Positions 45,871 to 64,000 of a stretch of DNA of 64,000 nt are shown here, in pieces (within the stretch, counting starts at the first letter, position 1; the number at the start of each line of letters is the position of its first letter). The stretch is from contig OZ242318.1 of the NCBI GenBank assembly GCA_965208105.1, positions 448,001 through 512,000 on the forward strand. Direction: 5' to 3'. Under the pieces are notes generated by a model. That model had not been told where the DNA came from, made no database searches, and saw nothing but the letters and a program-made list of their open reading frames with translations. The DNA is from Candidatus Latescibacterota bacterium (GTDB lineage: Bacteria; Latescibacterota; UBA2968; UBA8231). A program made the translations under genes and the position numbers.

Positions 45871-45921
45871 GGCCCCCCCGGGGAAACCGGCTGGAACCCC
45901 TTTTCGGGATCTTCTCTTCTT

Positions 45922-48072: not shown

Positions 48073-48109
48073 CTGCTTTCCACTGGAATGAAAACCGGAT
48101 TCCGCCCAC

Positions 48110-50758
48110 TCAGTAATTCAGCGGAGAGACCGCCTTGCTGACCATCGCCAGGGCGGCGCACAGCATGCCCACCAGGGCCATTCCCACGCCGAAGCCCACC
48201 GCCAGCACCATGGCATAGCGCCGCCATTCCTGCTTGCCGTAGCGCTTCCAGAAGTAGAACCTCGCCAGCAGCGCCCCGAAGATCTGGGGCAGCAGGCTGT
48301 GCGGGATGCCGATGACACTCTGCACGTAGCCCCAGATCAGAAAGATGGGCAACCCCAGGAAGGAAAGGATGGAATAGGCCACCAGCCCGAAGCCGGCCCC
48401 GAATGCGATAATGGGCCATTTTTTGCCGTCCACGGGATGGCCCCAGTCCTCGTCCACCTCCCCGTCGCCATCGTCGTCGCGGCCGTTGACCACTTCTTCG
48501 TCCACCTCCCCGTCGCCGTCGTCGTCGCGGCGGTTGCCGCTGAAGCGCAGATCCTCCCACAGGGCCTCGAACAGCAGGGGACGGTGGGAGGAGCGCAGGA
48601 GAAAATCCCCGCCGAAGCCCTGGGCCCGGTCCAGCTCGAAGTAGAAGTCCAGGGAGTCCTCCGCAACATTCTGTGCCGCGGCCCTTAAATGGGGGTTGGG
48701 GCTGTCTACCAGGTGGCCGTCCGGAGGCCACAGCAGGCGCGGAGCGGGCAGCTCCGGATCGCCCCCGCCAGATTCGGGCTGAGCTTCGATGATTCCCTCG
48801 AGCCGGGGCGCGGGGGGCGGCGAACCCCGCCCCTGGAAGTCGGTGAAAAAGTAGCCCACCCTCGACCAGGGGCCGTAGCTCCTCTTCTCGGGATCCGGGA
48901 CGTGGGTCTCCTGGGTCCCCCGCGCCCGCCAGAACCACCAGGTGCGGTCGCGCAGGTTGCTGGGACTCCACACCGCCTGGCCGCGCCCCACCTTTGCGCC
49001 TTCCACCTCCTCCCCTGCGCGCCACATCTTGTTGTACATGGTGCTCGACAGGAAGAAGGCCTGATCAAATGCCCTGAGGGGCCACATCTTCTGGGCATAG
49101 GGATAGGACTCGGATGGTATGGGCGCCAGGCGCCAGAGGAAGGTCCAGTACATCAGGCTCACGGCAAAGACGATGGGAATCATGAACAACTCGGCCTTGA
49201 GCAGGCTGGTGAAGCGCATGCCGGTGAGCTCCACCACGCGAAAATCTTCTGCATGTCCCCCGTAGTTGCGCGTCGGAAAGGGCACGAACCAGATGTCCAC
49301 CCCCCTGTAACCGGTCAGAAAGATGACCGCCTCGTTGATGTAGGGGATGGAGGCCTCGCGGCCGATCAGACCGTCCAGGCGGGCGCTGACGAAGGAGATG
49401 ATGGGAGCGTAGACGAAGGCGATGAGGAGGAAGACCACCAGCAGTCCGGTGCTCACTAGGGTGGGGAACAGGGTTTTGGCCAGGACGATGGGATAGAGGG
49501 CGGCGGTGCAGAAAAGGGCGACGCAGACCCAGATATTGAAATCCCCCCTCCCCAGATGCGCAATGCAGTATCCCCTGACCTCGGCGGGGCGCCTGCAGCT
49601 TCCGTGGCGGCAGACGCCGGTGGTAGGGCTTCTTTCCGCCTGGTTCTGCTCCCTGATCTCCTGCTGCCTGCGGCGTCCCGTGGCGAAAAGGTTGTAGAAG
49701 CTGATGGTGGTCACGGCGAGGGTGATGCCGATGGAGAAGGCGCGCCAGAAATCGATTCCGGTGGCGATCTGGGTGCGAATGGTGTCCATGCCCACCTCCC
49801 ACCGCGGCAACCAGCCGTAGGCGTAGAGGATGGGACTTACCGCGGTGTGGACCACGACTCCGGCGAAAGAACCGACCACCGCCCAGAAGGGCATGAGCAG
49901 GCCGGCGAAGATGGGACCCAGGTGAAGGGTGATGCCCAGGGGAGCCGCCTGCAGCAGGTTGCCCAGGTAGGGGGTGAAATCGGCAAAGGGAATGGGAATC
50001 AGTTCCAGGCGCTTGCCGAAGGCGATCTCCGTGATGGTTGGCAGCCCCACGTAGAGCACCCCGAACACCGTGCCGATGGCGGCGCCAATGCTGAACACCG
50101 GCCACTTCCAGGTTTCTCTCTCGCTGCCGCTCTCCTCGGCCAGGGCCATGGCCCCCAGCGCCGACATGGGCGCGGTGGGAAAGGGCAGCTGCTCCCGGTC
50201 GGAGGTCAGCCGGAAGAGCAGATAACCGGAGGTGAACCAGGCGATGCGGCCCACGATGGTGCCCAGCACCAGGAGCAGGATGGGCACCGCCCAGTCGCGG
50301 TGCAGAAAGGTGCGCTCGGCAATGGCCTGGGAATCCGGGTCAGGAACCCACCACGAGGGCAGCAGGCGGGAAATGCCGAACTGCTCTGCCTCGGCCGATC
50401 CCACGAAGTACTGGCGCCAGAGCAAATCGAGAAAGGCGCCCTCCTCCCGCGCGACCAGAGCAGACGCCACGTACACCAGCAGGAAGATCTCCTGCCGCTT
50501 CAAAGAGGTGAATGACCGCTTGGCCACCTCGAGGAACAGAATGACGGTCACCCATTGCGCCGCCGAGCCGATCGAGCCGCCAGTCACCAGTCCCAGATAC
50601 ATCTCGCCCGGGGTCATGATCAGGGAGATGAAGACCACCCCGAGGATGGTGCGCAGGGTGAAACCGCTTTCAAAGCGGTCGGGCGCCTGCAGCAGATCCC
50701 TGTACTCTTCGACTTCCTCCCACTGCCTGTCCTTGCGCCTGAGCATCGCCGGATTCAC
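48110..50758 (-). CDS. OPT-superfamily-like transporter with inserted soluble domains
   Basis: 882 aa; GFTLRTILG, AQWVTVILF.E and REQLPFP motifs, many TMs; GTG start overlaps the upstream stop (GTGA). Confidence 0.75.
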   Translation of the reverse strand: MNPAMLRRKDRQWEEVEEYRDLLQAPDRFESGFTLRTILGVVFISLIMTPGEMYLGLVTGGSIGSAAQWVTVILFLEVAKRSFTSLKRQEIFLLVYVASALVAREEGAFLDLLWRQYFVGSAEAEQFGISRLLPSWWVPDPDSQAIAERTFLHRDWAVPILLLVLGTIVGRIAWFTSGYLLFRLTSDREQLPFPTAPMSALGAMALAEESGSERETWKWPVFSIGAAIGTVFGVLYVGLPTITEIAFGKRLELIPIPFADFTPYLGNLLQAAPLGITLHLGPIFAGLLMPFWAVVGSFAGVVVHTAVSPILYAYGWLPRWEVGMDTIRTQIATGIDFWRAFSIGITLAVTTISFYNLFATGRRRQQEIREQNQAERSPTTGVCRHGSCRRPAEVRGYCIAHLGRGDFNIWVCVALFCTAALYPIVLAKTLFPTLVSTGLLVVFLLIAFVYAPIISFVSARLDGLIGREASIPYINEAVIFLTGYRGVDIWFVPFPTRNYGGHAEDFRVVELTGMRFTSLLKAELFMIPIVFAVSLMYWTFLWRLAPIPSESYPYAQKMWPLRAFDQAFFLSSTMYNKMWRAGEEVEGAKVGRGQAVWSPSNLRDRTWWFWRARGTQETHVPDPEKRSYGPWSRVGYFFTDFQGRGSPPPAPRLEGIIEAQPESGGGDPELPAPRLLWPPDGHLVDSPNPHLRAAAQNVAEDSLDFYFELDRAQGFGGDFLLRSSHRPLLFEALWEDLRFSGNRRDDDGDGEVDEEVVNGRDDDGDGEVDEDWGHPVDGKKWPIIAFGAGFGLVAYSILSFLGLPIFLIWGYVQSVIGIPHSLLPQIFGALLARFYFWKRYGKQEWRRYAMVLAVGFGVGMALVGMLCAALAMVSKAVSPLNY
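48450..48531 (-). repeat. Two 34-bp copies (48-bp period) encoding tandem RDDDGDGEVDE Ca-binding-type loops
   Basis: tcgtccacctccccgtcgcc(a/g)tcgtcgtcgcggc at 48450 and 48498. Confidence 0.9.
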
Positions 50759-53700
50759 CCGCCTTCCATGGCTATGCCCTCACCCAGCATCTGACGGGCC
50801 CTTTCCATGTGCTGCTCCCGTTCCTCATCCTTCAAGGTGTGCCAGATGAGGAACTCCTTGCGCAATCCATGCACGAAGCGCTGGTTCGTCGAGCGCCAGA
50901 AGGTGTCCTGGCCGCTGACGCGCTGAATGAAGAACTCGGCCGCGTAGATATTCTCCACCTCGGTGGGCTCGAAAACGATCTGCAGGTACTGGCTCACGCC
51001 CATGTCGAAGGGGGCCAGCCAGATCAGCATCTGTACCGCGTACTCCTCTCCCCTGGCCCCGCTTTCGCGAACCAGCCGGATTTCCTCGGTGAAGAAGGTT
51101 CCCAGGGACTCCTCGCTGTAGGCCCTGAAGTAGTTGACCAGAAAGCCGCACAGTCCCTCCACTTCCGCCTTGCCCACCATGAAGGGAAAGGGGAACTCCC
51201 AGCGGTCTCCCTCGGGAGCCGGCAACTGCCAGCGCCGCACCACCTCGGGGACCGCCGCCTGCGCCGCCATGCGCGCCGGGTAAAGGGTGGAGAGCAACAC
51301 CACCGCCATCACCAGCAGCGCTGCCACCACCGCAGACAGGGAGGAATAGTTCAGATTGACCCCCTCCAGGAAATTTGCCCAGATCAGCGCCTTTCCCATG
51401 CTCTGGCCGAGGACATATCCGCCGGCGATGCCCAGGACCGCATAGACGCAGGCCTCCGCCACGAAGAGCATGGAGATGTGGGCGGGAGCCAGACCCACCG
51501 ATGAGTAGATGCCGATCTCGCGGGAGCGCTCGTGTACCGCCCCGACCATGGTGTTGAGCACGATGAGGGCGGCGATGATCACGGGAACGATCAACTGCCC
51601 CAGGCCCTCCACCACCGTCATTCCCACGGAAGTGTAGGAATAGACGTTGATCCCATCCTCCTCCTCCAGGCCTGCGAACAGGCTGGTGGCCTGGCGCAGC
51701 AGAAAATCCTCGATCAGATCCCTCGCTTCCACTTCGGGGTGGAAGCGGACGGCCACCGAGCGCAGGTCGCCCCCCATCTGGCGGGCCAACTCGTAGGGCA
51801 CGACAAGAACGGTCTCGGGACGCTGGTGCACGAAGGGCCGGATGCCGCGGGGGTCTTCCCCAACTGCCGCTGCTCCGGTCTGGTCCACCGAGAGGTGGAA
51901 ATCGGCCGGGGTCGCCATCCCACCATCGAGGTCGCGACTGAGCGCCAGGCGGTTTGAGTCCACGAGGCCGCGCAGGAGCAATTGGCGGCCGAAAATACTG
52001 ACCCGCGCCCGGCCTACATCCTCTTCCGCGATCCCCAGCAAGGCGGCCATTTCCACTGGAACCAGGCAGGTGGATTCACCCGCCTCTTCAAACCAGGTGC
52101 CGGCCCGGAGAACCGCGTCCAGGACGCCGATTTGTTCTTCCTGGGGCGCCAGCCCCAGCAGGGCTCCGGCGCGGACCGAGCGCTTTCCGGATGTGACCGT
52201 GATATAGCCCTTTTCCTCCCCGCCCTGGAGTATAAACCAGCTTCGCGGACTGACGATGCCGTGGGACTCGAAATGAGAGCGCACGTATTCGAGGGCGGCC
52301 AGCTCCAGGGGTTCCCATCCCCAGTTCCTGATCAGGGCACCGGAATAAGCCCCTCCCTTGCCCAGCGGAAACCCCATAAAGCGAATCTGATTCTTGAATG
52401 AAGAGAAGGATAGCACGGTGAAGGTAAGCAGAACGAGAGTCGTCAGGGTCAGCCCGGTGCGCAGCTTGCGCCTCCGCATGTTCGAAATGCCCAGCATGAA
52501 AGCGGCATAGGCGGCGCCGACGCGGCTGATGTCGGTCTCGTGTACCTGGGCCGCAATCGCCTGGTAGTCGCGCATGTGGCGGTTGAAGCGGCCGACCACG
52601 AGCAGCAGCACGAAGACCGCCATGGCCATTATGGCAAAGGCCAGGAGGAGCACCAGAGGATGGGCGATCTCGAAGGCCGGGTGCACCTGCGAGATCACCA
52701 CCCAGATAAAGAGGAGCAGGAGAGCGAAGCCGGCCAGTTGCCGACGGATGTCGGCGGCGGCGAGGAACAGGCGTTCGGCGAAGAAGGCGGCTGGAATAAC
52801 CAGGGCCAGAAAAAACACCATGCCCTTGATCACGTCGTTGAGGGTGACCAGCGCATCCGGGTAAACGCGGGACTCGGTTCCCAGGGCGGCGCGAACGCCG
52901 GCCACGTGGCGGTCCCACTGCCTCGCCCGGCCGGCCTCCTCCGCCTCTTCCATCAAGGAGCCCGCCATCGCGTGAAGTTGGGTAAGACGCTGGTTTTCGA
53001 TGGCGTGCCGGCGCATGGTCCGCAGGCGGGCTTCGGTGAGCTGCCACATATCGCGCAGGGCGAGCACGGTGGTGCGGGTCAGCTCTTCCTCGGCGAGGAG
53101 ATAGCCGATTCCGCGCGCTTCCTTCTCGCTTGCGGTTCCCTGGCTGTTGACCAGCAGCATGAGGCCACCGTTCACGATGATCTTGAGACGGTCGCCATAG
53201 GCCCTGCCCGGAGGACCGAATACCACCCCTACGAGGTCCCGGGGGGACGGACTCAAGGCATAGCCGCAACGGCGGGCGTCGCGTCCTCCGGCATCGAGGA
53301 TCTTCAGATTCTGCATGGGCAGGAGAAATCGCGGATCGAGGAGACTGAAGAGGGGCCGTTGAACAGCCTCGAAAAGAACCAGGGTTTTCTTGTTGGTGGT
53401 GAAGCGGATGCTGCTCTGCAAGGAACCGTTGTCGGCAGGCTCCCCGTGGTGGTCCTGCGCCCTTATGCTCAGATCGGGGGCGAGGACGATCGACCCGGTC
53501 TTCGGCTCGAGCCCGTAGGCGCTGACCATGGCCATGCCCTGGGGCAGACCTCTGATTTCGGCATTGCCGTCCGTGCCGCAGATGTGGTAGCGCCACCGGC
53601 GAACCCCTTGGCGAGTCCCTTCCAGCCCCAGGTCCTGGCGGGCCGTTCCCCGGCCCTGGTGGGGGTCCGCAGGCCTTATGGCTGCCAGCGCCCCCGCGAC

Positions 53701-55197
53701 GGCCCGGTCCGGCAACTGGCTCCTGGGGGGAAAGGTGCGCACTTCAAGGCGCAGATCCCGCAGGCGGTCCTTGAGTGCCTGGCCGAACTCGTCCATACCG
53801 GCGAAAAGTTCAGGGTCGTCGAGGGCGCGGTGCAGGATCCTCTGGAGCAGGGCGATCTGTCGCTCCAGGTTGCCGAGGTTCACCTTCCCGGGACGGTCCA
53901 GGGGAGTATCCAGGTTGAACCGTCCGTCGTGCACGGTGACGAAGGCCAGGGAGACGATCCCGGCCGCGTGGGCCATCTCGCTGTTGACCGGGGCGCCCTG
54001 GGGCACGAAAGAGGACCATCCCAACCCCTTGATCGGGCTGATGCCGTTGACGAGGACTTCATTGCCATGCCTGCCCAACAGCGGCGCCATTTGCCTGGCG
54101 TAGGCGGTAAACCTGCGGCCGAAGGGGGCATAGAAGCGCCGCAAATCGGCGTTGTGGGTACTGTTCCACAGGCCCAGAAGATCGCTTTGGCTGGAAAGAT
54201 CCAGGCTTATGAAGAGCTTCACCTGGAGGGGGTCCGCGACCCGTCCGACGTAATCCTCGTGGAGGCGGGCGTGGCGCTCGAGAAAATCCACCATCCCCTG
54301 CATGGCCTGAAAATGAGCCGAAGTGGCAGCCAGAACCACGGTGCGGGCCGGCGGATGCGCCTTCAGGTGGCGGGCAAGCTCCAGAAGGGCGGTTATGCTG
54401 CAGGCGGCCTCGGCACTGGGGGCCAGCGCCGGCACCACCGAAGTGCCGTCGTAATAGGCCTCTACCACGATAATTTCGCGATTCAGCTCCGGGTGCGCCC
54501 CCGCAATCCTGCCGACGATATTCCAGGCAGGCCTCTCCTCCCAGTCCATCCTTCCCCGCAGCAGCCCTTCAACCTCGCCGCCCTGCCGGAGACGCTGGAG
54601 CAGGCTCAGGCCCGCATTCCGCCCGATCCAGAACCGCGGAATATCCAGGGGCGCTTCAACAAATTTGTCGTTTGCCTGTCTCCAGGTGGAGCTCTCGGGC
54701 TCAATGAAGATTACCGCCCTTGCTCCCAGGGCCGCGGCGTGCAGCCATCGGTCCTCGCTGTTGAATTCGAGCAGGGCGATGCGCCCCTCCACCTGCCGGC
54801 CGTTGAACTCGGACCAGTCGCCGTGCCCGCCATAAATCATGGGCGCTCTCACCCCCTCCGCAGGCAGTGTAGAGGTGCGCACCAGGTTGGGCCACAAACT
54901 CCAGATCTCGAAGACCCTGCCTTCCACCGTCAGCAGGAAGCCCCGGTCCATGGGCACCACCACCCCGTACTCCTCCCGGCGCAAATCCTCCACTCCGATG
55001 GCACCCAGTTCGGCCTCTACATAATCCGCCGCCAGAGCACAGCCAGGATAGCCCACCACTCTCGAGCCCGGCGCACTGAAGCGCTCGATGACACCGCGCA
55101 GATGGTCCACGTCGGCACCGGCGCAGGCATGCGCAATCAGAAGCCCGGAAGCTACCCGGAGAAGAAAAAATGCTCGCAAGGGAAATTTTTTCGGCAT
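50755..55197 (-). CDS. Fusion protein: signal peptide, PA/M28-like peptidase fold, TM block, MacB/FtsX-like permease, C-terminal soluble domain
   Basis: SRVVGYPG, NIVGRIAG..IIVVEAYYD and PPARTVVLAA (M28 fold); NMRRRKLRTGLT and HERSREIGIYSSVG..LYPARMAA (FtsX). Confidence 0.8.
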   Translation of the reverse strand: MPKKFPLRAFFLLRVASGLLIAHACAGADVDHLRGVIERFSAPGSRVVGYPGCALAADYVEAELGAIGVEDLRREEYGVVVPMDRGFLLTVEGRVFEIWSLWPNLVRTSTLPAEGVRAPMIYGGHGDWSEFNGRQVEGRIALLEFNSEDRWLHAAALGARAVIFIEPESSTWRQANDKFVEAPLDIPRFWIGRNAGLSLLQRLRQGGEVEGLLRGRMDWEERPAWNIVGRIAGAHPELNREIIVVEAYYDGTSVVPALAPSAEAACSITALLELARHLKAHPPARTVVLAATSAHFQAMQGMVDFLERHARLHEDYVGRVADPLQVKLFISLDLSSQSDLLGLWNSTHNADLRRFYAPFGRRFTAYARQMAPLLGRHGNEVLVNGISPIKGLGWSSFVPQGAPVNSEMAHAAGIVSLAFVTVHDGRFNLDTPLDRPGKVNLGNLERQIALLQRILHRALDDPELFAGMDEFGQALKDRLRDLRLEVRTFPPRSQLPDRAVAGALAAIRPADPHQGRGTARQDLGLEGTRQGVRRWRYHICGTDGNAEIRGLPQGMAMVSAYGLEPKTGSIVLAPDLSIRAQDHHGEPADNGSLQSSIRFTTNKKTLVLFEAVQRPLFSLLDPRFLLPMQNLKILDAGGRDARRCGYALSPSPRDLVGVVFGPPGRAYGDRLKIIVNGGLMLLVNSQGTASEKEARGIGYLLAEEELTRTTVLALRDMWQLTEARLRTMRRHAIENQRLTQLHAMAGSLMEEAEEAGRARQWDRHVAGVRAALGTESRVYPDALVTLNDVIKGMVFFLALVIPAAFFAERLFLAAADIRRQLAGFALLLLFIWVVISQVHPAFEIAHPLVLLLAFAIMAMAVFVLLLVVGRFNRHMRDYQAIAAQVHETDISRVGAAYAAFMLGISNMRRRKLRTGLTLTTLVLLTFTVLSFSSFKNQIRFMGFPLGKGGAYSGALIRNWGWEPLELAALEYVRSHFESHGIVSPRSWFILQGGEEKGYITVTSGKRSVRAGALLGLAPQEEQIGVLDAVLRAGTWFEEAGESTCLVPVEMAALLGIAEEDVGRARVSIFGRQLLLRGLVDSNRLALSRDLDGGMATPADFHLSVDQTGAAAVGEDPRGIRPFVHQRPETVLVVPYELARQMGGDLRSVAVRFHPEVEARDLIEDFLLRQATSLFAGLEEEDGINVYSYTSVGMTVVEGLGQLIVPVIIAALIVLNTMVGAVHERSREIGIYSSVGLAPAHISMLFVAEACVYAVLGIAGGYVLGQSMGKALIWANFLEGVNLNYSSLSAVVAALLVMAVVLLSTLYPARMAAQAAVPEVVRRWQLPAPEGDRWEFPFPFMVGKAEVEGLCGFLVNYFRAYSEESLGTFFTEEIRLVRESGARGEEYAVQMLIWLAPFDMGVSQYLQIVFEPTEVENIYAAEFFIQRVSGQDTFWRSTNQRFVHGLRKEFLIWHTLKDEEREQHMERARQMLGEGIAMEGG

Positions 55198-55316
55198 GGA
55201 GCTTTCCCGGGGGCCATTCAGAATTTCTATCTATTGAAAGCGGGCCCGGCCCCGCTGCCCGGCGGACCCTCCTCAAACGCGAAAAGGCACCCTGGCAACC
55301 TCGAGCAAACGCGGAT

Positions 55317-55345
55317 TTGATCGGCTCCCACCGGTTTAGTATAGT
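55317..55345 (+). promoter_or_regulatory. Putative sigma70 promoter for the fucosidase in the divergent intergenic region
   Basis: TTGATC-17 nt-TATAGT. Confidence 0.45.
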
Positions 55346-55404
55346 AAACTATAATCCGACCGTCCCACCCCCATTCAACCCCGGCAGGAGAGGAGAGTCT
55401 CCAG

Positions 55405-56718
55405 ATGGAACTGAAAAAGAGCGGCGGCGCCACCGACTGGTTCGTCCACGACCGATTCGGTCTCTTCATCCACTGGGGTCTCTACGCCCTTCCCGCGCGC
55501 CACGAGTGGGTCAAGCAACGCGAGGAAATTGCGGACGAAGCCTACGACCGCAAGTACTTCTCGCGCTTCGATCCCGACCTCTACGATCCGGACTCCTGGG
55601 CAGAGGCCGCCGCAGCCGCCGGCATGAAATATTTCGTGGTCACCAGCAAACACCACGAGGGCTTCTGCCTTTGGGATTCGCAGCTTACCGACTACAAGGC
55701 GACCAGGACGCCCGCTGCACGCGACCTCCTGAAACCCATGGTCGAGGCCTTTCGCCGGCGCGGCATGAAGGTCGGGTTCTACCACTCCCTCATCGACTGG
55801 CATCACCCGGACTTCGTCATCGACGACCTGCACTCAATGCGCAACCACCCCGACCGCGAACGGCTCAACGCCGGGCGCCGGCAGAAAAGCTACATCGAGT
55901 ATCTGCACGGCCAGGCGCGGGAGCTGTTGACCCGGTTCGGCCGCGTCGACCTGCTGTTCTACGATTTCAGTTACCGGCCAGGAGAGCGGGGCCGCTCCCC
56001 GGATCTCACCGGCAAGGGACGCGACGACTGGAACAGCCGCGACCTCATTGCGTTGACCCGCAAGCTGCAGCCCGACATCCTCGTCAACGACCGGCTGGAC
56101 CTGCACGAAGTGGAGGGAGGCTGGGACTACATGACCCCCGAGCAGTTTCTGCCCCGGGACCCGGTCACAGTTGGCGGCCGGCCGGTGTTGTGGGAAACAT
56201 GCCAGACCTTCTCCGGCTCTTGGGGCTACCACCGCGACGAGACCTCCTGGAAGAGCGTCGAACAACTGATTCGCATGCTGATCGAGGTGGTGAGCAAGGG
56301 GGGGAACCTCCTCCTGAACGTGGGCCCCACCGCCCGCGGGGAGTTCGACGACCGCGCCCTGGAGCGCCTGCGCGGGATGGGCGAATGGATGAAGCGTCAC
56401 GGGCGCTCGATCTACGGCTGCACCATGGCACCTGGAGAGTTCGCCGCGCCACCGGACTGCCGCCTCACCTACAATGCGCGCACCCGCCGGATCTATCTCC
56501 ACGTCTTTGCCTGGCCGTTCAGGCAACTTCACCTCGACGGCTTTGCAGGAATGGTCGATTACGCCCAGCTACTCAACGATGGTTCGGAGATACTCATCAG
56601 TGAAGATCCAGGCCACTACCGCAGCGGCGACCGCCACCAGCGGCAGACCCTGACCCTTGAACTTCCAGTGGAGAAACCGCGCGTCGCAGTGCCCGTGGTA
56701 GAGCTCTTTCTGAGCTGA
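55405..56718 (+). CDS. Alpha-L-fucosidase (GH29), no signal peptide
   Basis: RFGLFIHWGLY, SKHHEGFCLWD, LLFYDF nucleophile region, WETCQT..SWGY and GGNLLLNVGP. Confidence 0.95.
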   Translation: MELKKSGGATDWFVHDRFGLFIHWGLYALPARHEWVKQREEIADEAYDRKYFSRFDPDLYDPDSWAEAAAAAGMKYFVVTSKHHEGFCLWDSQLTDYKATRTPAARDLLKPMVEAFRRRGMKVGFYHSLIDWHHPDFVIDDLHSMRNHPDRERLNAGRRQKSYIEYLHGQARELLTRFGRVDLLFYDFSYRPGERGRSPDLTGKGRDDWNSRDLIALTRKLQPDILVNDRLDLHEVEGGWDYMTPEQFLPRDPVTVGGRPVLWETCQTFSGSWGYHRDETSWKSVEQLIRMLIEVVSKGGNLLLNVGPTARGEFDDRALERLRGMGEWMKRHGRSIYGCTMAPGEFAAPPDCRLTYNARTRRIYLHVFAWPFRQLHLDGFAGMVDYAQLLNDGSEILISEDPGHYRSGDRHQRQTLTLELPVEKPRVAVPVVELFLS

Positions 56719-56751
56719 GCCGGGGAGACACCCTCCGGCGGCCGGGGCGGC

Positions 56752-57177
56752 TCACTCTCCTGATTTGCGCGCCTCCAACAGGCGGACCGCCACATAGGCC
56801 AGGAGCGCGAAAACGAAGAAGACGAGCAGCATCCATGCAATCCCCTGCAGGGTTTCGATGATGGTGCGGTAGACTTCGAGGACCCAGCGCTCGGTGGTCA
56901 GGGCCAGCGCGAACGCCTCTCCGGTCCCACCCTTCCGCAACCCGGGCTGGGCCAGGGAACGCGGCGTTATGTAGCGCTCCAGCTCCCAGACCCGCACTCC
57001 CTTGGAAATTCCCACCACATAGATGGCGAAGCGCATGTACCTCACCCAGGCGGAGCTGATCTCCTCGGCGATGATGCGCTGCACAATCCCGGCGATCGGC
57101 CCATTGAAGAGGTGGGCGACCAGAGCCGAAACCCCCAGGGCGATCAGGAACGTCACCAGCAGCAGTGTGATGAACAC
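56752..57177 (-). CDS. Small hypothetical membrane protein (about 3 TMs)
   Basis: GTG at 57177 after a strong RBS (AAGGAGG); hydrophobic helices. Confidence 0.75.
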   Translation of the reverse strand: MFITLLLVTFLIALGVSALVAHLFNGPIAGIVQRIIAEEISSAWVRYMRFAIYVVGISKGVRVWELERYITPRSLAQPGLRKGGTGEAFALALTTERWVLEVYRTIIETLQGIAWMLLVFFVFALLAYVAVRLLEARKSGE

Positions 57178-57297
57178 CTTCCTCCTCCTTTCACGAAGGG
57201 ACAACGATGCCGCAACCTGGACCAGGCCGAACACTGGCGGACCCAGGACGGATTTCAACGCGGAAGCGGCCTTCCACCTCTCTTCCCGATGCACCGT

Positions 57298-58341
57298 TCA
57301 ATGGACCGTGCGTTCCCACAGCACCACGCGCTCGGGGTCGACCAGGGGAAGGACGGTATCTCCCGGCCGCCAGGACGGCTCTCTGGCGGCAAGGACATGG
57401 ATCTGGCATCCCGCCCACTCTACGAGAAGAATCCTGTGGTGCCCCGCGTCTTCGATCACCCGCACCAGGCCAGGGTCCTCCCCGCCGGCGAGGGCGATGT
57501 CTTCGGGCCTTATTCCCAGAAGCATCTCGCCCTTCCTCCCCCCAGCGGGCATTACCCGCGTGCCCCCGGCGGCCACCCAGTAGCCCTCGAACTCCCGGAC
57601 TTCGAGAATATTCATGGGTGGACGGCCCAACTGCCTGGCCACCACGGGTGACAGGGGCCGGAGATAGATCTCTTTCGCTCCACCCGTCTGGAGCACCCGG
57701 CCGCCCTCCAGCACGGCAATGCGGTCGCCCATGGACATGGCCTCGGCCTGGTCGTGGGTTACGTAAATCATGGGAATCCCCAGCTCGCGCTGGAGCACGA
57801 CCAACTCCACCCGCAAAGCCTCGCGCAGTTTGGCATCCAGATTGGTGAGAGGCTCGTCCATGAGAAAGAGGCGCGGCCGCCTGACAACGGCGCGGCCAAT
57901 GGCGACGCGCTGCATCTCTCCGCCGGACAGTTGTTCGACCCTGCGCTCCAGGAGATCTCCGATCCGCAGCAGAGACCCCGCCCATTGGATCCGCTCCTCG
58001 ATCTCGGCCGCCTTCAATCGGCGGCCGGGAGCCCTCAAAGGGAACTCCATGTTGCGGCGCACGGTCCAATCCGGGTAGAGGGAAAAATTCTGAAAGACCA
58101 ATGCCACGTCGCGCCCGGGAGGCAGCCGGTGGGTTATGTCCTCTCCGCCCATTTCGATACGGCCGGCTTCGGGCATCTCCAGTCCGGCAATGGTCCGTAG
58201 AAGGGTCGTTTTTCCGGCTCCGGTGGGTCCCAAAACCACCAGGAGCTCGGAAGGGCCCAACTCCAGGCTGACGGAGCGCAGAGCCTCGACGCGGCCGAAG
58301 CGCTTGCAAACACCCAGAAGCCGGAGAAATCCGTTTTTCAC
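57298..58341 (-). CDS. Sugar ABC transporter ATPase (MalK-like, TOBE domain)
   Basis: GPTGAGKT, LSGGEMQR, LMDEP and YVTHDQ; true start is the GTG at 58341 overlapping the upstream stop. Confidence 0.93.
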   Translation of the reverse strand: MKNGFLRLLGVCKRFGRVEALRSVSLELGPSELLVVLGPTGAGKTTLLRTIAGLEMPEAGRIEMGGEDITHRLPPGRDVALVFQNFSLYPDWTVRRNMEFPLRAPGRRLKAAEIEERIQWAGSLLRIGDLLERRVEQLSGGEMQRVAIGRAVVRRPRLFLMDEPLTNLDAKLREALRVELVVLQRELGIPMIYVTHDQAEAMSMGDRIAVLEGGRVLQTGGAKEIYLRPLSPVVARQLGRPPMNILEVREFEGYWVAAGGTRVMPAGGRKGEMLLGIRPEDIALAGGEDPGLVRVIEDAGHHRILLVEWAGCQIHVLAAREPSWRPGDTVLPLVDPERVVLWERTVH

Positions 58342-59402
58342 AGAGCCTCGCCCGTATCCGGGTCGAAGCAGCGAATGTGTCGCAGGTCGAAGCCCAGGGA
58401 AACCTCCTCGCCGCGTCGATACGAGCCACCCCCACCCACCTGCATGGTCAGGCGGCCCGACCCCGTATCCAGGTAGACATTGCGGCAGAATCCCAGGTAC
58501 TCCTCCGTCAGCACCCTGGCTTCGAGGAGCCCCGGAAAAGCCGGGCGCACGAACTCCGGACGCACCCCCAGGACAGCCCTGCCCACGCGAAGGGGACGCG
58601 GCAAGGGAAGATCCCACCCTCCGGCTGACGGGGTGAAGCGGCAATCCTCCCCTTCCCCAGCCACCTCTCCCTCGATCAGGTTCATTGCCGGACTGCCGAC
58701 GAAATGGGCAACGAAGAGGCCGGCAGGCCGATCGTAGACTTCGGCGGGGGTACCGCTTTGTCTGATGCGCCCCTCGTCCATCACCACCACCTGGTCGGCG
58801 AGGGACATGGCTTCCTCCTGGTCGTGAGTGACGTAGATGGTGGTCACTCCCATTTCCAGTTGCCGGGAGCGGATCCACTCGCGCATCTCCAGGCGCAGGT
58901 CGGCGTCGAGCGTGCCCAGGGGCTCGTCCATCAGGTAGAGCCGCGGCCTGCGCACCATCGCCCTCGCCAGGGCTACCCGCTGCTGGTCCCCCCCGCTCAA
59001 CTGGGGCGGATACAGGTCGGCCAGTGCTTCGAGCCCGAGGCGCGCGAGGATCTCGGCGACGCGCTCGCGGCGCTGGCGGGGGACACCCTCCATGCTCTCC
59101 AGGGGGAAGGCGATATTGTCGCGCACCGTCAGGTGGGGATAGAGCGAGTAGAACTGAAAGACGAAACCCACATCCCGCGCCGCCGGGGACATGGCGCTGA
59201 CGTCGGCTCCGGCCACTTTGATCTGTCCCCCGGTGGGGACCTCGAGCCCGGCGATCATGCGCAGAGTGGTGGTCTTGCCGCACCCGGAGGGCCCGAGAAG
59301 TACCACGAACTCCCCTTCCTCGCAGCGCAAGTCGATGCCTTTGACCGCTGCGGTACCCTCCGCATAGATTTTGCTGAGGCGGTTCAGTTCCAGGAAGCTC
59401 AT
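58338..59402 (-). CDS. Sugar ABC transporter ATPase (MalK-like, TOBE domain)
   Basis: GPSGCGKT, LSGGDQQR, LMDEP, YVTHDQ and FVGSPAMN. Confidence 0.95.
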   Translation of the reverse strand: MSFLELNRLSKIYAEGTAAVKGIDLRCEEGEFVVLLGPSGCGKTTTLRMIAGLEVPTGGQIKVAGADVSAMSPAARDVGFVFQFYSLYPHLTVRDNIAFPLESMEGVPRQRRERVAEILARLGLEALADLYPPQLSGGDQQRVALARAMVRRPRLYLMDEPLGTLDADLRLEMREWIRSRQLEMGVTTIYVTHDQEEAMSLADQVVVMDEGRIRQSGTPAEVYDRPAGLFVAHFVGSPAMNLIEGEVAGEGEDCRFTPSAGGWDLPLPRPLRVGRAVLGVRPEFVRPAFPGLLEARVLTEEYLGFCRNVYLDTGSGRLTMQVGGGGSYRRGEEVSLGFDLRHIRCFDPDTGEAL

Positions 59403-59661
59403 GTGTGTTCGTAGATTTCCATCAGGGGACCGGTTGGAGCACCAACCGGATAGATAGTAACTTCCCGATGCGCGCTTGACGCCTGAGCAGGGGGAATTAC
59501 AGGTCAAAACTACGATTCAATCGCCGATCTGCAAAAGATCGAAGACCTGCCATCTGCCTTGACCGGAAAACCGGAAGGTTCTTTAAATGTCTGTACTGGA
59601 ATCCACCTCGTCCGCTACCCCGAAAGTTTTTGGTCCAGACCTCACCGAGTCGGAGGACATG

Positions 59662-60033
59662 ATGCCAATCGTTCAATTGGAACTTGTGATTCGAGGTAAT
59701 TTCGAGCGAATCAGCGGCGACACCCTGCAGGACCTCGCCGACGAACTCGGTGAATATTTCCAGACGGACAGGGCCGCCACCTGGGTCAAGGTCGGCTACC
59801 TTCCATTCGAGCAATATGCGGAAAATCGGACCGCGCTTGGAGGCGAGGTAAGGCCCACCCTGGTCTACGTGCTGAAATACCGGCTTCCCCCACGGGACCA
59901 ACTAGCACAGGAAGCAAAGGACCTGTCGCGGATCGTGGCGAAACGCCTGCAGCGCCCCGAAGAAAACACTCACATAATTTTCGAGCCGGACGGGATAGGG
60001 CGGGTCGCTTTCGGCGGCGAACTGGTCACCTGA
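59662..60033 (+). CDS. Tautomerase/MIF superfamily-like protein
   Basis: GGAGG RBS then MPIVQLE (Pro-1); C-terminal HIIFEP..GRVAFGG. Confidence 0.65.
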   Translation: MPIVQLELVIRGNFERISGDTLQDLADELGEYFQTDRAATWVKVGYLPFEQYAENRTALGGEVRPTLVYVLKYRLPPRDQLAQEAKDLSRIVAKRLQRPEENTHIIFEPDGIGRVAFGGELVT

Positions 60034-60095
60034 TGCTTTTCAGCACTCCGCCGACGCCTTGTCGAGTTTCGATGCAATTGTCCTGAAGGAGGCGG

Positions 60096-60410
60096 TTATA
60101 CTACGGAAAGCGGTTCGATCCGGGCTAGTTCGTCTCGATACTGTTGCTTCAAATCCCAAAGATCCCTGGCATGTTGGGCTTGCAGCCAAAATTCAGGAGA
60201 GTTCTTGAACACGCGGGCTAGTTTCAACGCCATGATGGGCGAAACAGCACGCCGCTCGCGCACCAGTTCGTTAACGGTTTGACGAGAAACGCCCAATGCG
60301 GCAGCCAAAACAGTCGTCGTCAGACCATAATCGGGAAGAAAGTCTTCTCGCAACATCTCCCCAGGATGGGTAGGGGGAATGTTGCGTTTTTGCTTATTTG
60401 CAATAGCCAT
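60096..60410 (-). CDS. higA: HigA family antitoxin (Xre HTH)
   Basis: PTHPGEMLREDFL..LA.ALGVSRQTV..SPEFWLQAQ. Confidence 0.95.
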   Translation of the reverse strand: MAIANKQKRNIPPTHPGEMLREDFLPDYGLTTTVLAAALGVSRQTVNELVRERRAVSPIMALKLARVFKNSPEFWLQAQHARDLWDLKQQYRDELARIEPLSVV

Positions 60411-60420
60411 GGATTATTCC

Positions 60421-60701
60421 TTAATGGTAATCCGTGATTTCAACGTCGTAGGCCTCTCCGTCGACGAAGCGAAAACAGATGCGCCATTGGTCATTGATCG
60501 ATATTGAATGTTGTCCTTTGCGGTCCCCTTTCAAGGGATGCAGGCGGTTGCTCGGCGGTACCCTCAAATCGTTCAATGTACGAGCGAGATCGATGTATTC
60601 CAATCGCCGTATGGCTCTTCGAATCAGATGGCGGATAATCGTTTGAATTGTCCCGTGGTATAGAGCTGTTGAGTTGCTCTATCGGCGAATGTTTTGATCA
60701 C
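60421..60701 (-). pseudogene. higB: HigB/RelE toxin with a 1-bp frameshift near 60629
   Basis: GTG at 60701 gives VIKTFADRATQQLY..RLSAI*; LIRRAIRRLEYID..PPSNRLH.LKGDR.GQHSISINDQWRICF continues in another frame; the span is 281 nt. Confidence 0.85.
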
Positions 60702-60707
60702 AGGTCA

Positions 60708-60736
60708 ATTGTAACGTGCCACGTGATAATTGTCAA
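60708..60736 (-). promoter_or_regulatory. higBA sigma70 promoter with palindromic operator in the spacer; probably leaderless mRNA
   Basis: TTGACA-17 nt-TACAAT; ACGTG-N-CACGT palindrome at 60714-60724; -10 lies 6 nt from the GTG. Confidence 0.85.
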
Positions 60737-60745
60737 TTCCGGTTA

Positions 60746-60774
60746 GGGTTCATCCCCGCGTAGGCGGGGCAGCC
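60746..60774 (-). CRISPR. Single (orphan) type I-E-like CRISPR repeat with adjacent leader end; no array or cas genes in the window
   Basis: 29-nt GGCTGCCCCGCCTACGCGGGGATGAACCC with a CCCCGC/GCGGGG hairpin, preceded by AT-rich ...GGTGTTAGA. Confidence 0.65.
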
Positions 60775-60824
60775 TCTAACACCGGTGAGTGTATATATAT
60801 ACTGAACTATTGCAAACTTCGGCT

Positions 60825-62815
60825 GTGTGTCCAGCGAAGGCTGGCGTGTTCAGCAGGAGACAGTCCTGCCGGGGTAAGAGTCAGCAGCCCCGTAGCTTGG
60901 ATAGCAGGGTGGCGGGAAACCAACATCCTGAAGCCTATCGACAGAGTCTCCCTGGGGAGACTGCGAGTCATTGGGCCGTAACGAAAGTGAACGCAGAGGT
61001 GGCCTCGAAAGTGCAAAGCCCCGAAGGCCGAGCCGACAACCGGACGGCGAAGGCAGCATGGGCAGCCGAAGGCTGAATGAGACGGCTGCTTTACTTCGGC
61101 GGGTTGGTAGCGACGGCACGATGGCAAGGACATGCCGAGCAACTGGAGAAGCCCTCCTCGCCCCGGCGCGAAATCGCCGGAGCAGGGTAGGTCCTATAAC
61201 CGGAGACACCGGGAAGGGGACCGAAGGCGAGAGGGTGGCGGATGGGTGCATAGTAGCGAGGAAGCGGGGTAACGCCCGTGGAGCGAAGGCGCCCTGCTGT
61301 TGAACATTCTCCGACAACAACGGGAGGCACGGGTGGAATGATAAAAACGCCCATCACGGTGCAGGACCTGAGAAGGAGAATATACCTCAAGGCGAAGGCT
61401 GACAAGGCCTGGCGTTTCTGGGGACTGTACGTCCATGTATGCAAGAGGGAAACACTCCACGAGGCCTACAAGGCGGCCAAGCGCAATAACGGAGCCCCGG
61501 GTATTGATGGCATGACGTTTGCGGCCATCGAGCAGTCCGGCGTGGAGACGTTTCTGGAAGGCCTACGTGATGAACTGATCTCCGAGACCTATCGGCCCAT
61601 GAGGAATCGTCGGGTGGAAATTCCCAAGGGAGAGGGTACAACCCGTACTCTGGGGATACCCAGCATACGAGACCGCGTGGTCCAGGGGGCGCTCAAGCTG
61701 ATTCTGGAGCCTGTCTTCGAGGCTGATTTCCAACCGGGGTCGTATGGGTACCGGCCGAAGCGCACGGCCCATCAGGCCATTCAGCGGGTGGCGCAAGCGG
61801 TGGTTCAGAACAAGACCACGGTAATAGACGTGGACCTGGCTTCGTATTTCGACAGGATCCGCCATGACATTTTGTTGAGGAAAGTGGCGGAACGGGTTGA
61901 TGACCAGCAGGTTCTGAGGCTGCTGAAGTCCATTCTCAAGACCGGCGGCCGACGCGGCGTTCCTCAAGGGGGTGTCCTTTCCCCGTTGCTCAGCAACCTC
62001 TATCTCAACGGGGTAGACCAGATGCTGGAGCGGGCGAAGCGCGCCACTCGACGAGGGCGGTATACTTATATCGAGTATGTGCGGTTTGCTGATGATGTTG
62101 TGATCCTGGTCGACGGCTATCGGCGGTGGAAGTGGCTCGCCGCGGCGGTCGACCGACGACTTCGGGAAGAATTGGCCAAGCTCGATGTAGCGCTCAATCA
62201 CGACAAGACGCGTCGAATCGACCTGACCCGAGGCGAACACTTCGGATTCCTGGGGTTTGACTCTCGTCGAACCAGGACTCGGCGGGGGGTATGGGGCGTG
62301 CGCAACGTGCCGACGATGAAGGCACGTACGGCGCTTCTGCGCAAGCTCAAGGAGCTTTTTCGACGTTTTCGCTCCCAACCGATCGATCGGGTCATCGGCC
62401 TGATCAACCCGGTGTTGCGCGGATGGGTCAACTACTTCCGTGTGGGGCAGTCGAATCGATGCTTCAGGTATGTGAAAAACTGGGTTGAGAAGAAGATCAG
62501 ACGCCATCTGATGCGCGCGCGCCAAGGTCAGAGTTTTGGCTGGAAGAGGTGGAGTAGCCGGTGGTTATACAAAGAGCTCGGGCTATTCTCCGAGTATCGG
62601 GTGGCCTACCACCGGCCGAAAGCCCCTCCGGTACAATAGGTCCCATAGCCCTTGAGAGGAAATCAACAGGAAAGCCCGGTGCGGGAAATCCGCATGCCGG
62701 GGTTTGACGTGGCGGGAGTTGGAAACGTGATCAGGGGAGCCGGACTGAGGCCCATCGCGAAAGCGGTGGAATCGTCACCGGACCCTACCGTTGGCGCGCC
62801 AGCTCTCGACCCTAC
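60825..62815 (+). mobile_element. Full-length group II intron
   Basis: 5' GTGTG; domain V GAAAGCCCGGTGCGGGAAATCCGCATGCCGGGGTTTG; 3' ...CGACCCTAC; EBS/IBS complementarity. Confidence 0.93.
61338..62639 (+). CDS. ltrA: Group II intron reverse transcriptase/maturase (no endonuclease domain)
   Basis: GAPGIDG, LGIPSIRDRVVQ, SYGYRP, GVPQGG, YVRFADD and maturase RGWVNYF. Confidence 0.97.
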   Translation: MIKTPITVQDLRRRIYLKAKADKAWRFWGLYVHVCKRETLHEAYKAAKRNNGAPGIDGMTFAAIEQSGVETFLEGLRDELISETYRPMRNRRVEIPKGEGTTRTLGIPSIRDRVVQGALKLILEPVFEADFQPGSYGYRPKRTAHQAIQRVAQAVVQNKTTVIDVDLASYFDRIRHDILLRKVAERVDDQQVLRLLKSILKTGGRRGVPQGGVLSPLLSNLYLNGVDQMLERAKRATRRGRYTYIEYVRFADDVVILVDGYRRWKWLAAAVDRRLREELAKLDVALNHDKTRRIDLTRGEHFGFLGFDSRRTRTRRGVWGVRNVPTMKARTALLRKLKELFRRFRSQPIDRVIGLINPVLRGWVNYFRVGQSNRCFRYVKNWVEKKIRRHLMRARQGQSFGWKRWSSRWLYKELGLFSEYRVAYHRPKAPPVQ

Positions 62816-64000
62816 CAGGCCAGCTCAAGATATGTGACGATGCGCTGCTGATTCCACCCCAAAGTTGTAGCCTGTTCGACGGCCCAATGGATGGTCTTAC
62901 TGAGCGTTTCCCGCGACACGGCTCGACAGGCTTGGCCGATGGTCGTCAGCACACCATGTGGCCAGTCACGCGCACGGCCCTGCCCCATTTGGGCTATGAG
63001 GAGACTGTGCGCCAGCATCGCCAGATACAGGTGCCGGGTCTGGCCCTTGGCGCTGCGTAGCTGACAGTCTCCCATGCCCAGATGTTGCTTGCCGTCCCGG
63101 TGAAAGGTCTCCGTGCCCGTCCAGCGTTTGCGGTAGACGTTCAATATACGGCTGATCTCCCAATACACCCGGTTGGTCACCAGGTACTTGACCGGCTTCC
63201 TGCCGTTCTTGCGATCCCACAGAATCACCAGGCGGACGGGGTGATCGAGGTGGGGAAGACGCACGGTTCGGGTGTAATACCACTGTTTGCGATCGCCGAT
63301 GTCGACCCGTTTGCGCTCCTCGGGGGCGACCCCGGCGGCCCACTCGACCGCCTTCATCTCACCGCCCTTGAAACGCACCTTGCGGTTGCTCTTCAAATCC
63401 CCCACGTAGCCGCGCGTATGGCCTTGGATATGGTTGAGACTCTCGGCACTGGTGAAGTAGCAGTCAAAGGCGAAATCCCCGGGAATCTCTCGCTCCACCA
63501 CCCCGTCCACCAACTCCTTGAACAGGTCCGTGTGATTCTTGAAGGGCTCGGCCGACTCGCCTTCGACGCCCTCTTCCCGCTTGCGAAAACGACGAAACTC
63601 CAAAGGATAATGTTTCCCCGACGAACACACGTAGTTGGCGATCACGTAGTCGTGCGCAATCAGATGGCGCCCCTCGGCATGGTCCCAGAACCAACCCGCG
63701 CCCTCGATCATCTCCCCGCTATGGCCGACCAGGGTGTTGTCGATGGCGATCACCCCCCGCGCTGAATAGCGGGTCGAAGAATGACCCTGCAGCCAGGCCA
63801 AACGATGTTCGTTGAGTTGTTCCACGTCCCACGGCACCTGGGTGATCCAACGGTTCAGGCAGGATTGATCCGTGGTCTGGGCAAACTCGGCGTTGATCGC
63901 CGAAACGTTCTTGCGCTCGGCGACCATCAGCCCGGTCAGATACTCGGCAAAATGCCAGCGCTCCGGGGTGTTGGCGAACATCCAGCCGAATTCGTCCACG
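62812..64000 (-). CDS. IS701-family DDE transposase (5' end outside the window)
   Basis: YLTGL..RKN, IAIDNT, FAFDCYF and YRKRW..ETFHRDGKQHLG..CQLR. Confidence 0.9.
   Translation of the reverse strand, partial: VDEFGWMFANTPERWHFAEYLTGLMVAERKNVSAINAEFAQTTDQSCLNRWITQVPWDVEQLNEHRLAWLQGHSSTRYSARGVIAIDNTLVGHSGEMIEGAGWFWDHAEGRHLIAHDYVIANYVCSSGKHYPLEFRRFRKREEGVEGESAEPFKNHTDLFKELVDGVVEREIPGDFAFDCYFTSAESLNHIQGHTRGYVGDLKSNRKVRFKGGEMKAVEWAAGVAPEERKRVDIGDRKQWYYTRTVRLPHLDHPVRLVILWDRKNGRKPVKYLVTNRVYWEISRILNVYRKRWTGTETFHRDGKQHLGMGDCQLRSAKGQTRHLYLAMLAHSLLIAQMGQGRARDWPHGVLTTIGQACRAVSRETLSKTIHWAVEQATTLGWNQQRIVTYLELAW

Follow-up and report, generated by a model that had tools for sequence, protein, structure and literature searches.

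A solitary type I-E CRISPR repeat between a higBA cassette and an insertion sequence in a Latescibacterota genome, a probable relic of a lost CRISPR-Cas locus

Repeats of type I-E that persist without their cas genes are known from orphan or degenerate arrays left behind after cas loss. Solitary and ectopic repeats are also known as units with a role of their own. Racr units, according to the available part of the report on them (PMC10651486), are solitary repeats carried by viruses and plasmids, often located just after a promoter, and 83% of the reported units match the CRISPR subtype of their host. CreA repeats, as characterized in the accessible portion of PMC9458426, are degenerate, lie in cas operons, depend on Cascade and usually occur in pairs; the same portion describes the CreA pseudo-spacer as partly matching a PAM-flanked site in the promoter of an RNA toxin.

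Here we present a locus from a Candidatus Latescibacterota genome in which one 29-nt repeat of type I-E stands between a short leader stub, cut off by an insertion sequence (IS), and the promoter of a higBA toxin-antitoxin (TA) cassette. The stretch of DNA that was analyzed, 64,000 nucleotides in length, is referred to as the window, and positions beyond its end are given as window equivalents. With a probability of roughly 85%, the element is a non-functional, decayed relic of a type I-E CRISPR array or locus, and the repeat is most likely a product of normal genome erosion and not a novel regulator. The features of the locus and of the related loci used for comparison are summarized in Table 1.

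The solitary repeat and its family

On the minus strand, ...CAGTATATATATACACTCACCGGTGTTAGA directly precedes GGCTGCCCCGCCTACGCGGGGATGAACCC, which is read from 60774 down to 60746. The repeat folds into a 6-bp stem (CCCCGC/GCGGGG) closed by a 4-nt loop and has the make-up of a type I-E unit, with a length of 29 nt, a GC stem, a short loop and the 3' handle region ATGAACCC; a functional array would contain at least two repeats with spacers, and only one copy is present. When up to three mismatches were allowed, the 29-mer had a single match in the window, and none of 100 shuffled sequences contained one. An exhaustive ungapped scan of the genome (4,846,116 bases) returned one match of 29/29, two of 22/29 and seven of 21/29; the 22/29 and 21/29 matches are a smooth chance tail. 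The 23-nt core pattern, searched with at most two mismatches, was found at only two other sites in the genome, both of them look-alikes in which the stem is broken, and no second repeat, even a degenerate one, was found within 59500-62000 (next best match 17/29).

The earlier note on this DNA had described a lone 29-nt repeat on the minus strand behind an AT-rich leader end, and the sequence is as described. It had also stated that no second repeat follows and that the place of spacer 1 is taken by the higBA -35 box and operator; the window and genome-wide scans agree with the former, and the order of 9 nt, TTGACA, 17 nt and TACAAT with the latter. The search for identical repeats elsewhere in the genome that it proposed yielded none, the next best match being 22/29. 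In the predicted fold of 60700-60824 (minus strand) the leader end is able to pair with the 9 nt located 3' of the repeat; no weight is given to this fold, which has a z-score of -0.32 and is equaled by 70 of 200 shuffled sequences. The span 60001-60780 is matched without differences by a Logan contig of run X1, so that the junction of higBA and repeat is not an artefact of one assembler, although X1 is possibly the source sample and its agreement with the assembly is then not independent.

Table 1. Features of the solitary-repeat locus and of the loci compared with it (window positions unless a contig is named)
Feature	Position	Strand	Description or basis
Direct repeat, left copy, ~398 bp	59636..60033	plus	within a 148-aa ORF without Pfam match
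Direct repeat, partner	window equivalent 86536-86933 (G000:C1:534536-534933)		87% identical to the left copy; the pair brackets the variable segment
higA antitoxin gene, 104 aa, intact	60096..60410	minus	HTH_3 (Pfam)
higB toxin gene, frameshifted	60421..60701	minus	PF05015, E 2.6e-17
higBA promoter, TTGACA-17-TACAAT	60708..60736	minus	11/12 consensus positions; operator-like ATCACGTGGC between the boxes
9-nt gap TAACCGGAA	between repeat and higBA -35 box	minus	
Solitary type I-E CRISPR repeat GGCTGCCCCGCCTACGCGGGGATGAACCC, 29 nt	60746..60774	minus	near-identity to array repeats of relatives; stem-loop
Leader or pre-repeat remnant TATATATACACTCACCGGTGTTAGA, 25 nt	60775..60799	minus	similarity to the G041 pre-repeat sequence; the rest is cut off by the IS end
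Insertion sequence	60800..64178 (past the window end at 64000)	minus	terminal inverted repeats TACTGAACTATTGCAAA and TACTGGACTTTTGCAAA; Pfam DDE_5, DDE_Tnp_1
Group II intron, 1991 nt, GTGTG...CTAC	60825..62815	plus	25 nt inside the left end of the IS
RT-maturase ORF of the intron	61338-62639		Pfam RVT_1, GIIM
IS transposase, 409 aa	62812-64041	minus	DDE_5 and DDE_Tnp_1 (Pfam)
Type I-C loci	G000:C1:1135363-1148331 and 2093552-2101023		
G041 type I-E Cascade operon and 5-repeat array	L018 10587-15705		
G025 solitary-repeat locus	L019 2168-3439		107-aa Cas3_HD fragment (E 5e-15), 18 nt, solo repeat, ~300 nt, vapBC
G037 orphan 7-repeat array	L017 9168-10431		ABC-transporter genes upstream
Mini-array of two repeats and one spacer, viral contig (16.9 kb)	L052 596-685	minus	27/29 and 26/29 to the solitary repeat

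Among the 75 other genomes of the same family, the 29-mer occurs with at most three mismatches in three (G037, G041 and G025), all of which belong to genus g12 (3 of the 31 genomes there). Their copies differ from the solitary repeat at two to three positions, so the latter, at 27/29 to the closest of them, is not degenerate. When one genome per species was scanned for the exact pattern, the repeat variant turned up in three records only, all of them Candidatus Latescibacterota MAGs. G037 has seven repeats and G041 five (up to six mismatches allowed), in both cases with 32-nt spacers and a period of 61 nt, and G025 has a single copy (27/29).

The array of G041 starts 23 nt after a five-gene operon, cse1-cse2-cas7e-cas5e-cas6e. 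Pfam matches were obtained for Cse2, Cas7e (E 2.4e-96), Cas5 and Cas6e; the first gene of the operon (544 aa), which has the position of cse1, is without a Pfam match. No cas1, cas2 or cas3 was found near the array within the 20 kb examined. A gene for a tyrosine recombinase is located near this Cascade operon, and the G041 genome contains a second Cas7e/Cas6e locus. On account of its near-identity to array repeats that stand beside Cascade genes in G041, the solitary repeat is identified as a genuine type I-E CRISPR repeat. The comparison with relatives proposed in the earlier note accordingly turned up the same repeat family in arrays, one of them next to type I-E Cascade genes.

The G037 array is followed, 27 nt past its last repeat, by a Phd-like ORF (a weak match, E 1.8e-4, below the Pfam cut-off) and then by vapB and a PIN toxin gene; Cas7e and Cas6e gave no match in this genome. 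The G025 genome retains a Cas7e match, located on another, short contig. A gene for an AAA_21 ATPase was seen upstream of the Cas3 HD fragment in the G025 locus. The solo repeat of G025 and the orphan array of G037 suggest that type I-E loci of this family are found at several stages of loss. It was also considered whether the G037 array occupies the same site as the solitary repeat; this was rejected, the ABC permeases being 26% identical and the binding proteins unrelated.

A complete type I-E locus, from cse1 to cas2 and with 46 repeats, is present in G015, which belongs to the same genus as the genome under study. A count by eye shows its repeat to be 22/29 identical to the solitary repeat (7 differences), and the two leader ends are not alike. 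Identity of this system with the present locus was rejected on these grounds and because it lies ~60 kb away in the opposite orientation.

Contigs of run X1 contain five repeat-repeat joints, one of them at a depth of 89 against a local depth of 7.9, and contigs of run X4 contain two. The repeat copies in these joints are separated by 26-35 other letters, which is consistent with spacers of ~32 nt, and the joints indicate that another organism or replicon in these communities carries arrays with this repeat. The JGI metagenome contigs gave no match to the leader-repeat junction and none to the repeat. The spacer of the mini-array on viral contig L052 did not match the genome under study, and a protospacer search with 10 spacers (from G037, G041 and L052) yielded no real match in it, the best being 16 contiguous bases.

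Surroundings of the repeat

Of the leader, only 25 nt remain before the repeat, and the rest is replaced by the IS. Compared without gaps with the 23 nt between the cas6e stop codon and the first repeat of G041, this stub matches at 17/23 positions, and the last eight, GTGTTAGA, are identical, which bears out the earlier recognition of a leader end in front of the repeat. Together, the match and the identical end indicate that the solitary copy is a leader-proximal repeat with its upstream stub. The leader end TTAGA/TTAGT, which the earlier note described as frequent in type I-E leaders, was found in one of three arrays of relatives (G041); those of G015 and G037 end otherwise. Since the cas6e stop codon of G041 lies 23-25 nt upstream of the first repeat, the IS sits approximately where the cas operon would have ended. 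The sole promoter-like candidate 5' of the repeat (60833-60806) matches at 9 of 12 positions and is located inside the IS/intron end.

The right end of the IS, at 64178, reads TACTGGACTTTTGCAAA in reverse complement. Copies of the IS elsewhere in the genome are partial, and one of them has an uninterrupted (intron-less) left end. No target-site duplication was seen around the IS (TATA versus GTTC), which is weak evidence, because the other copies in the genome are partial. The nested group II intron shows a match to RF02003 at 60851-60986 (E 1e-26) and a domain V match to RF00029 of 27.8 bits, below the gathering score. Its ends are fixed by an intron-less joint in the X1 contigs, 60824 to 62816 (L004 824 to 2816), which skips exactly 1991 nt with the boundaries GT..AC. 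By Pfam, the RT-maturase has no endonuclease domain. The genome also contains other copies of the intron, truncated or lacking the ORF, one of which follows the cas1 gene of a type I-C locus at a distance of 1.7 kb. On the far side of the IS, the encoded proteins are a PAS histidine kinase and a LuxR-type regulator and not Cas proteins.

On the other side of the repeat, the cassette has the layout of a HigBA module, in which a gene for a HigB-like toxin is followed by one for an HTH antitoxin under one promoter; the toxin gene is split in two frames. A TGA closes the first 25 codons (60701-60624), and the remainder continues in another frame, which covers positions 19-91 of the 91 in PF05015. 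Both frames align to a single higB ORF of G004, which indicates a 1-nt deletion. In X11, an RNA-library run of a related strain, a contig contains an additional G behind 60629; the X1 contigs have the sequence of the assembly. None of the X11 contigs extends over the repeat, which speaks neither for nor against its transcription. The reading frames of the two remaining full-length HigB matches in the genome are open.

DNA homology of the cassette to G007, G004 (72%) and G014 (76%) takes in the promoter and the operator-like GTCACGTGAC palindrome. The homology to G007 and G004 stops at ~60737, where those loci have other sequence, and no CRISPR repeat was found beside the higBA promoter in G007, G004 or G014. 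The occurrence of the same promoter and operator without a repeat in three relatives shows that the promoter is a part of the higBA cassette and no part of the CRISPR remnant. Situated upstream of this promoter, the repeat is outside the higBA transcript. The G037 array and the solo repeat of G025 likewise have TA modules as neighbors. With totals of only 4 HigB and 9 PIN matches in the genome, the adjoining of a repeat and a TA promoter is unlikely to be due to chance.

Both the cassette and the repeat are part of a segment of 27.3 kb (window equivalent 59509-86843) that is absent from G015. In that genome the sequences corresponding to window 50003-59508 and 86844-90237 (79-87% identity) directly adjoin each other, and the flanking ABC-transporter genes are contiguous. 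In the genome under study the segment splits an ABC sugar-transporter gene set, with the ATPases on the left and the permease and binding protein on the right. Besides higBA, the repeat and the IS, it contains genes for a two-component system, an outer-membrane efflux protein, surface proteins, ABC-2 permeases, radical-SAM proteins and peptidases. The combination of radical-SAM, subtilase, S41 peptidase and ABC exporter genes resembles a cluster for peptide modification. A Pfam scan of 30 large ORFs across window equivalent 42958-59507 and 64407-97936 (20 in the segment and 10 on its flanks) found no phage, plasmid or integrase domain.

Cas genes, origin of the locus and rival readings

A search of the genome with the profiles PF08798, PF09481 and PF09344 (Cas6e, Cse1 and Cas7e) gave no match. 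Because the sensitivity of the Pfam genome searches was uncertain (among 14 control genomes they matched in Thermus only), tblastn searches were added. The best value obtained with the five Cascade proteins of G041 was E 0.19; eight type I-E proteins or parts of proteins from G015, together with the Cas3 fragment of G025, gave nothing at E<=0.01, and the searches with the G015 proteins revealed neither a type I-E Cas1 nor a Cas2. The two Cas1 genes of the genome both lie in type I-C loci (Cas3, Cas5d, Csd1, Cas7, Cas4, Cas1). Beside the first of these is the only real array that the repeat finder detected, with ~67 repeats of 37 nt; the simple repeat finder detected none beside the second. Tandem units of ~120 nt at G000:C1:3717875-3719076, which were also flagged, resemble the coding sequence of leucine-rich repeats and not CRISPR. 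The earlier note had asked for the type I-E cas genes of this genome; none were found, and the two type I-C loci are all there is, in an assembly of one contig (4.85 Mb, 93.9% complete, 8% contamination) that leaves room for an unbinned plasmid with type I-E genes.

What is left appears, from its likeness to the G041 array, to be the first repeat of the array, next to the leader, and the 25 nt immediately before it. The array may have shrunk to a single repeat by recombination between its direct repeats, and the cas operon and most of the leader would have been lost through an IS-associated deletion or rearrangement. As the type I-E system of the same-genus G015 uses a different repeat, a donor related to genus g12 may have contributed the remnant together with the variable segment. 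The order in which collapse, IS insertion, deletion and transfer would have taken place is likewise reconstructed. The remnant is expected to be inert, except for the formation of a hairpin if it is read through, since the genome has neither a Cas6e that would cut it nor a Cascade that would take it up, and no promoter for it is evident.

The decayed-relic reading, put forward in the earlier note as the relic of a collapsed array, is the one adopted here, on the strength of the type I-E repeat, the shared leader end, the lack of type I-E cas genes, the leader truncated by an IS and the parallel in G025. The companion proposal of a mini crRNA-like element tied to higBA control finds no support: no Cascade or Cas6e was found, three relatives have the promoter without the repeat, and higB is frameshifted. 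Against a pure relic it may be said that the repeat is intact, which fits a recent loss and would also fit selection, that its adjacency to a TA promoter exceeds what chance should produce, and that a cognate Cascade could be available in trans from the arrays of the community.

An origin other than from CRISPR, as a REP-type dispersed hairpin, as a terminator or as a hairpin targeted by a group II intron, would suit a GC-rich intergenic hairpin close to an intron, and its REP and terminator forms were those by which the earlier note proposed that its own interpretation might fall. It can be practically dismissed. REP and terminator were rejected because the hairpin has a single copy in 4.85 Mb and is followed by no T-run, with 0 terminator-like sites in 60000-61000; an intron target was rejected because the intron is nested in the IS at a distance of 50 nt from the hairpin and has IS sequence, shared with the intron-less copy, as its homing site. 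The near-identity to array repeats beside Cascade genes settles the origin. A reading that accepts this origin sees in the stub and repeat a dormant seed array, which would become usable if type I-E genes were carried on an unassembled replicon or arrived later. A single repeat with its leader end is the minimal substrate for type I-E spacer integration, the repeat is intact, and possible sources in trans exist in the community. Such a seed is nevertheless unlikely, since only 25 nt of leader are left, no spacer has been added, the genome yielded no type I-E Cas1 or Cas2, and even the G041 array is without cas1-cas2 within the 20 kb examined.

Functions in which the repeat would be transcribed deserve even less credit. 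Solitary repeat units act as RNA anti-CRISPRs, type I-E included, in the available part of PMC10651486, and a Racr-like decoy on a mobile segment could soak up the Cas6e or Cas7e of a type I-E host. The position of the locus in a strain-variable segment of 27.3 kb, the arrays with the same repeat in the same metagenomes and the viral mini-array (27/29 and 26/29) all agree with this. The 30 large ORFs scanned (20 in the segment and 10 on its flanks) contain no phage, plasmid or integrase domain, however, and the host is without type I-E, as against the 83% of units that match the host subtype in that part of the report; moreover, the only promoter candidate upstream is the unconvincing 9/12 match in the IS/intron end, and the retained leader end points to an origin from an array and not to an evolved mimic, so that a decoy is very unlikely. 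For a guide of the CreA/CreR kind, a crRNA-like RNA would have the higBA promoter as its 'spacer', and Cascade bound to that promoter would make the cell addicted to its CRISPR effector. The 32 nt after the repeat do include the operator and the -35 box, the accessible portion of PMC9458426 describes ectopic repeats by which Cascade is directed to toxin promoters, and TA modules are found downstream of the G037 array and close to the solo repeat of G025. We regard such a guide as highly improbable: no Cascade or Cas6e was found in the genome; the RNA would match only its own template, which is flanked by the repeat end (CCC) like a spacer of any array, and no separate PAM-flanked target; functional ectopic repeats are strongly degenerate in that portion of PMC9458426, whereas this one is canonical and keeps its leader end; the toxin is a protein, and frameshifted; and the higBA promoter and operator occur without a repeat in G007, G004 and G014. 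There is, finally, a very slim chance that the solo repeat was kept as a working ectopic repeat served in trans by type I-E Cas6e/Cascade, either as a decoy or as the source of a higBA-promoter RNA that couples the TA module to the effector. It would then be transcribed from the IS or the leader stub, with Cascade supplied by an unbinned replicon or a co-resident element, and the recurrence of type II TA modules beside type I-E repeats of this family (higBA at the present locus, phd-like plus vapBC for G037, and vapBC for G025) would be functional and not a matter of clustering in islands.

Comparison with known systems

Read as a decayed relic, the locus is a clean and well-bounded example of the death of a CRISPR-Cas system, with array collapse, a leader cut by an IS and loss of the cas genes. 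Taken together with G025 and G037, it points to repeated loss of type I-E in a Latescibacterota family while related arrays persist in the same communities. It also calls for caution in annotation, because repeat finders and screens for solitary repeats can catch chromosomal relics, and the recurrence of TA cassettes beside type I-E repeats is a small lead on the clustering of TA and CRISPR.

With Racr units, as they appear in the available part of PMC10651486, the present repeat shares the property of being a single CRISPR-like repeat apart from other repeats and cas genes. It differs from them in that it is not on a recognizable virus or plasmid, its host lacks a matching subtype, no clear promoter lies upstream and its leader is genuine. 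The likeness to CreTA/CreA, within the accessible portion of PMC9458426, is that of an ectopic repeat beside a toxin-antitoxin promoter; unlike CreA, the present repeat is not degenerate and not one of a pair, and it has no cas operon, Cascade, PAM-flanked target or RNA toxin. The G025 locus is similar in having a solitary repeat of the same family (27/29) near a type II TA module, and dissimilar in that its upstream flank is a cas3 fragment and not a leader end and that the distance from the repeat to vapB is ~300 nt. Of the known kinds, an orphan, decayed CRISPR array comes closest. Like orphan or degenerate type I-E arrays after cas loss, the locus has a 29-nt repeat with a GC stem and tetraloop, a shared leader end, no cognate cas genes and mobile elements at its breakpoints; unlike them, it has come down to one repeat and no spacer, with a TA promoter on one side and an intron-bearing IS on the other.
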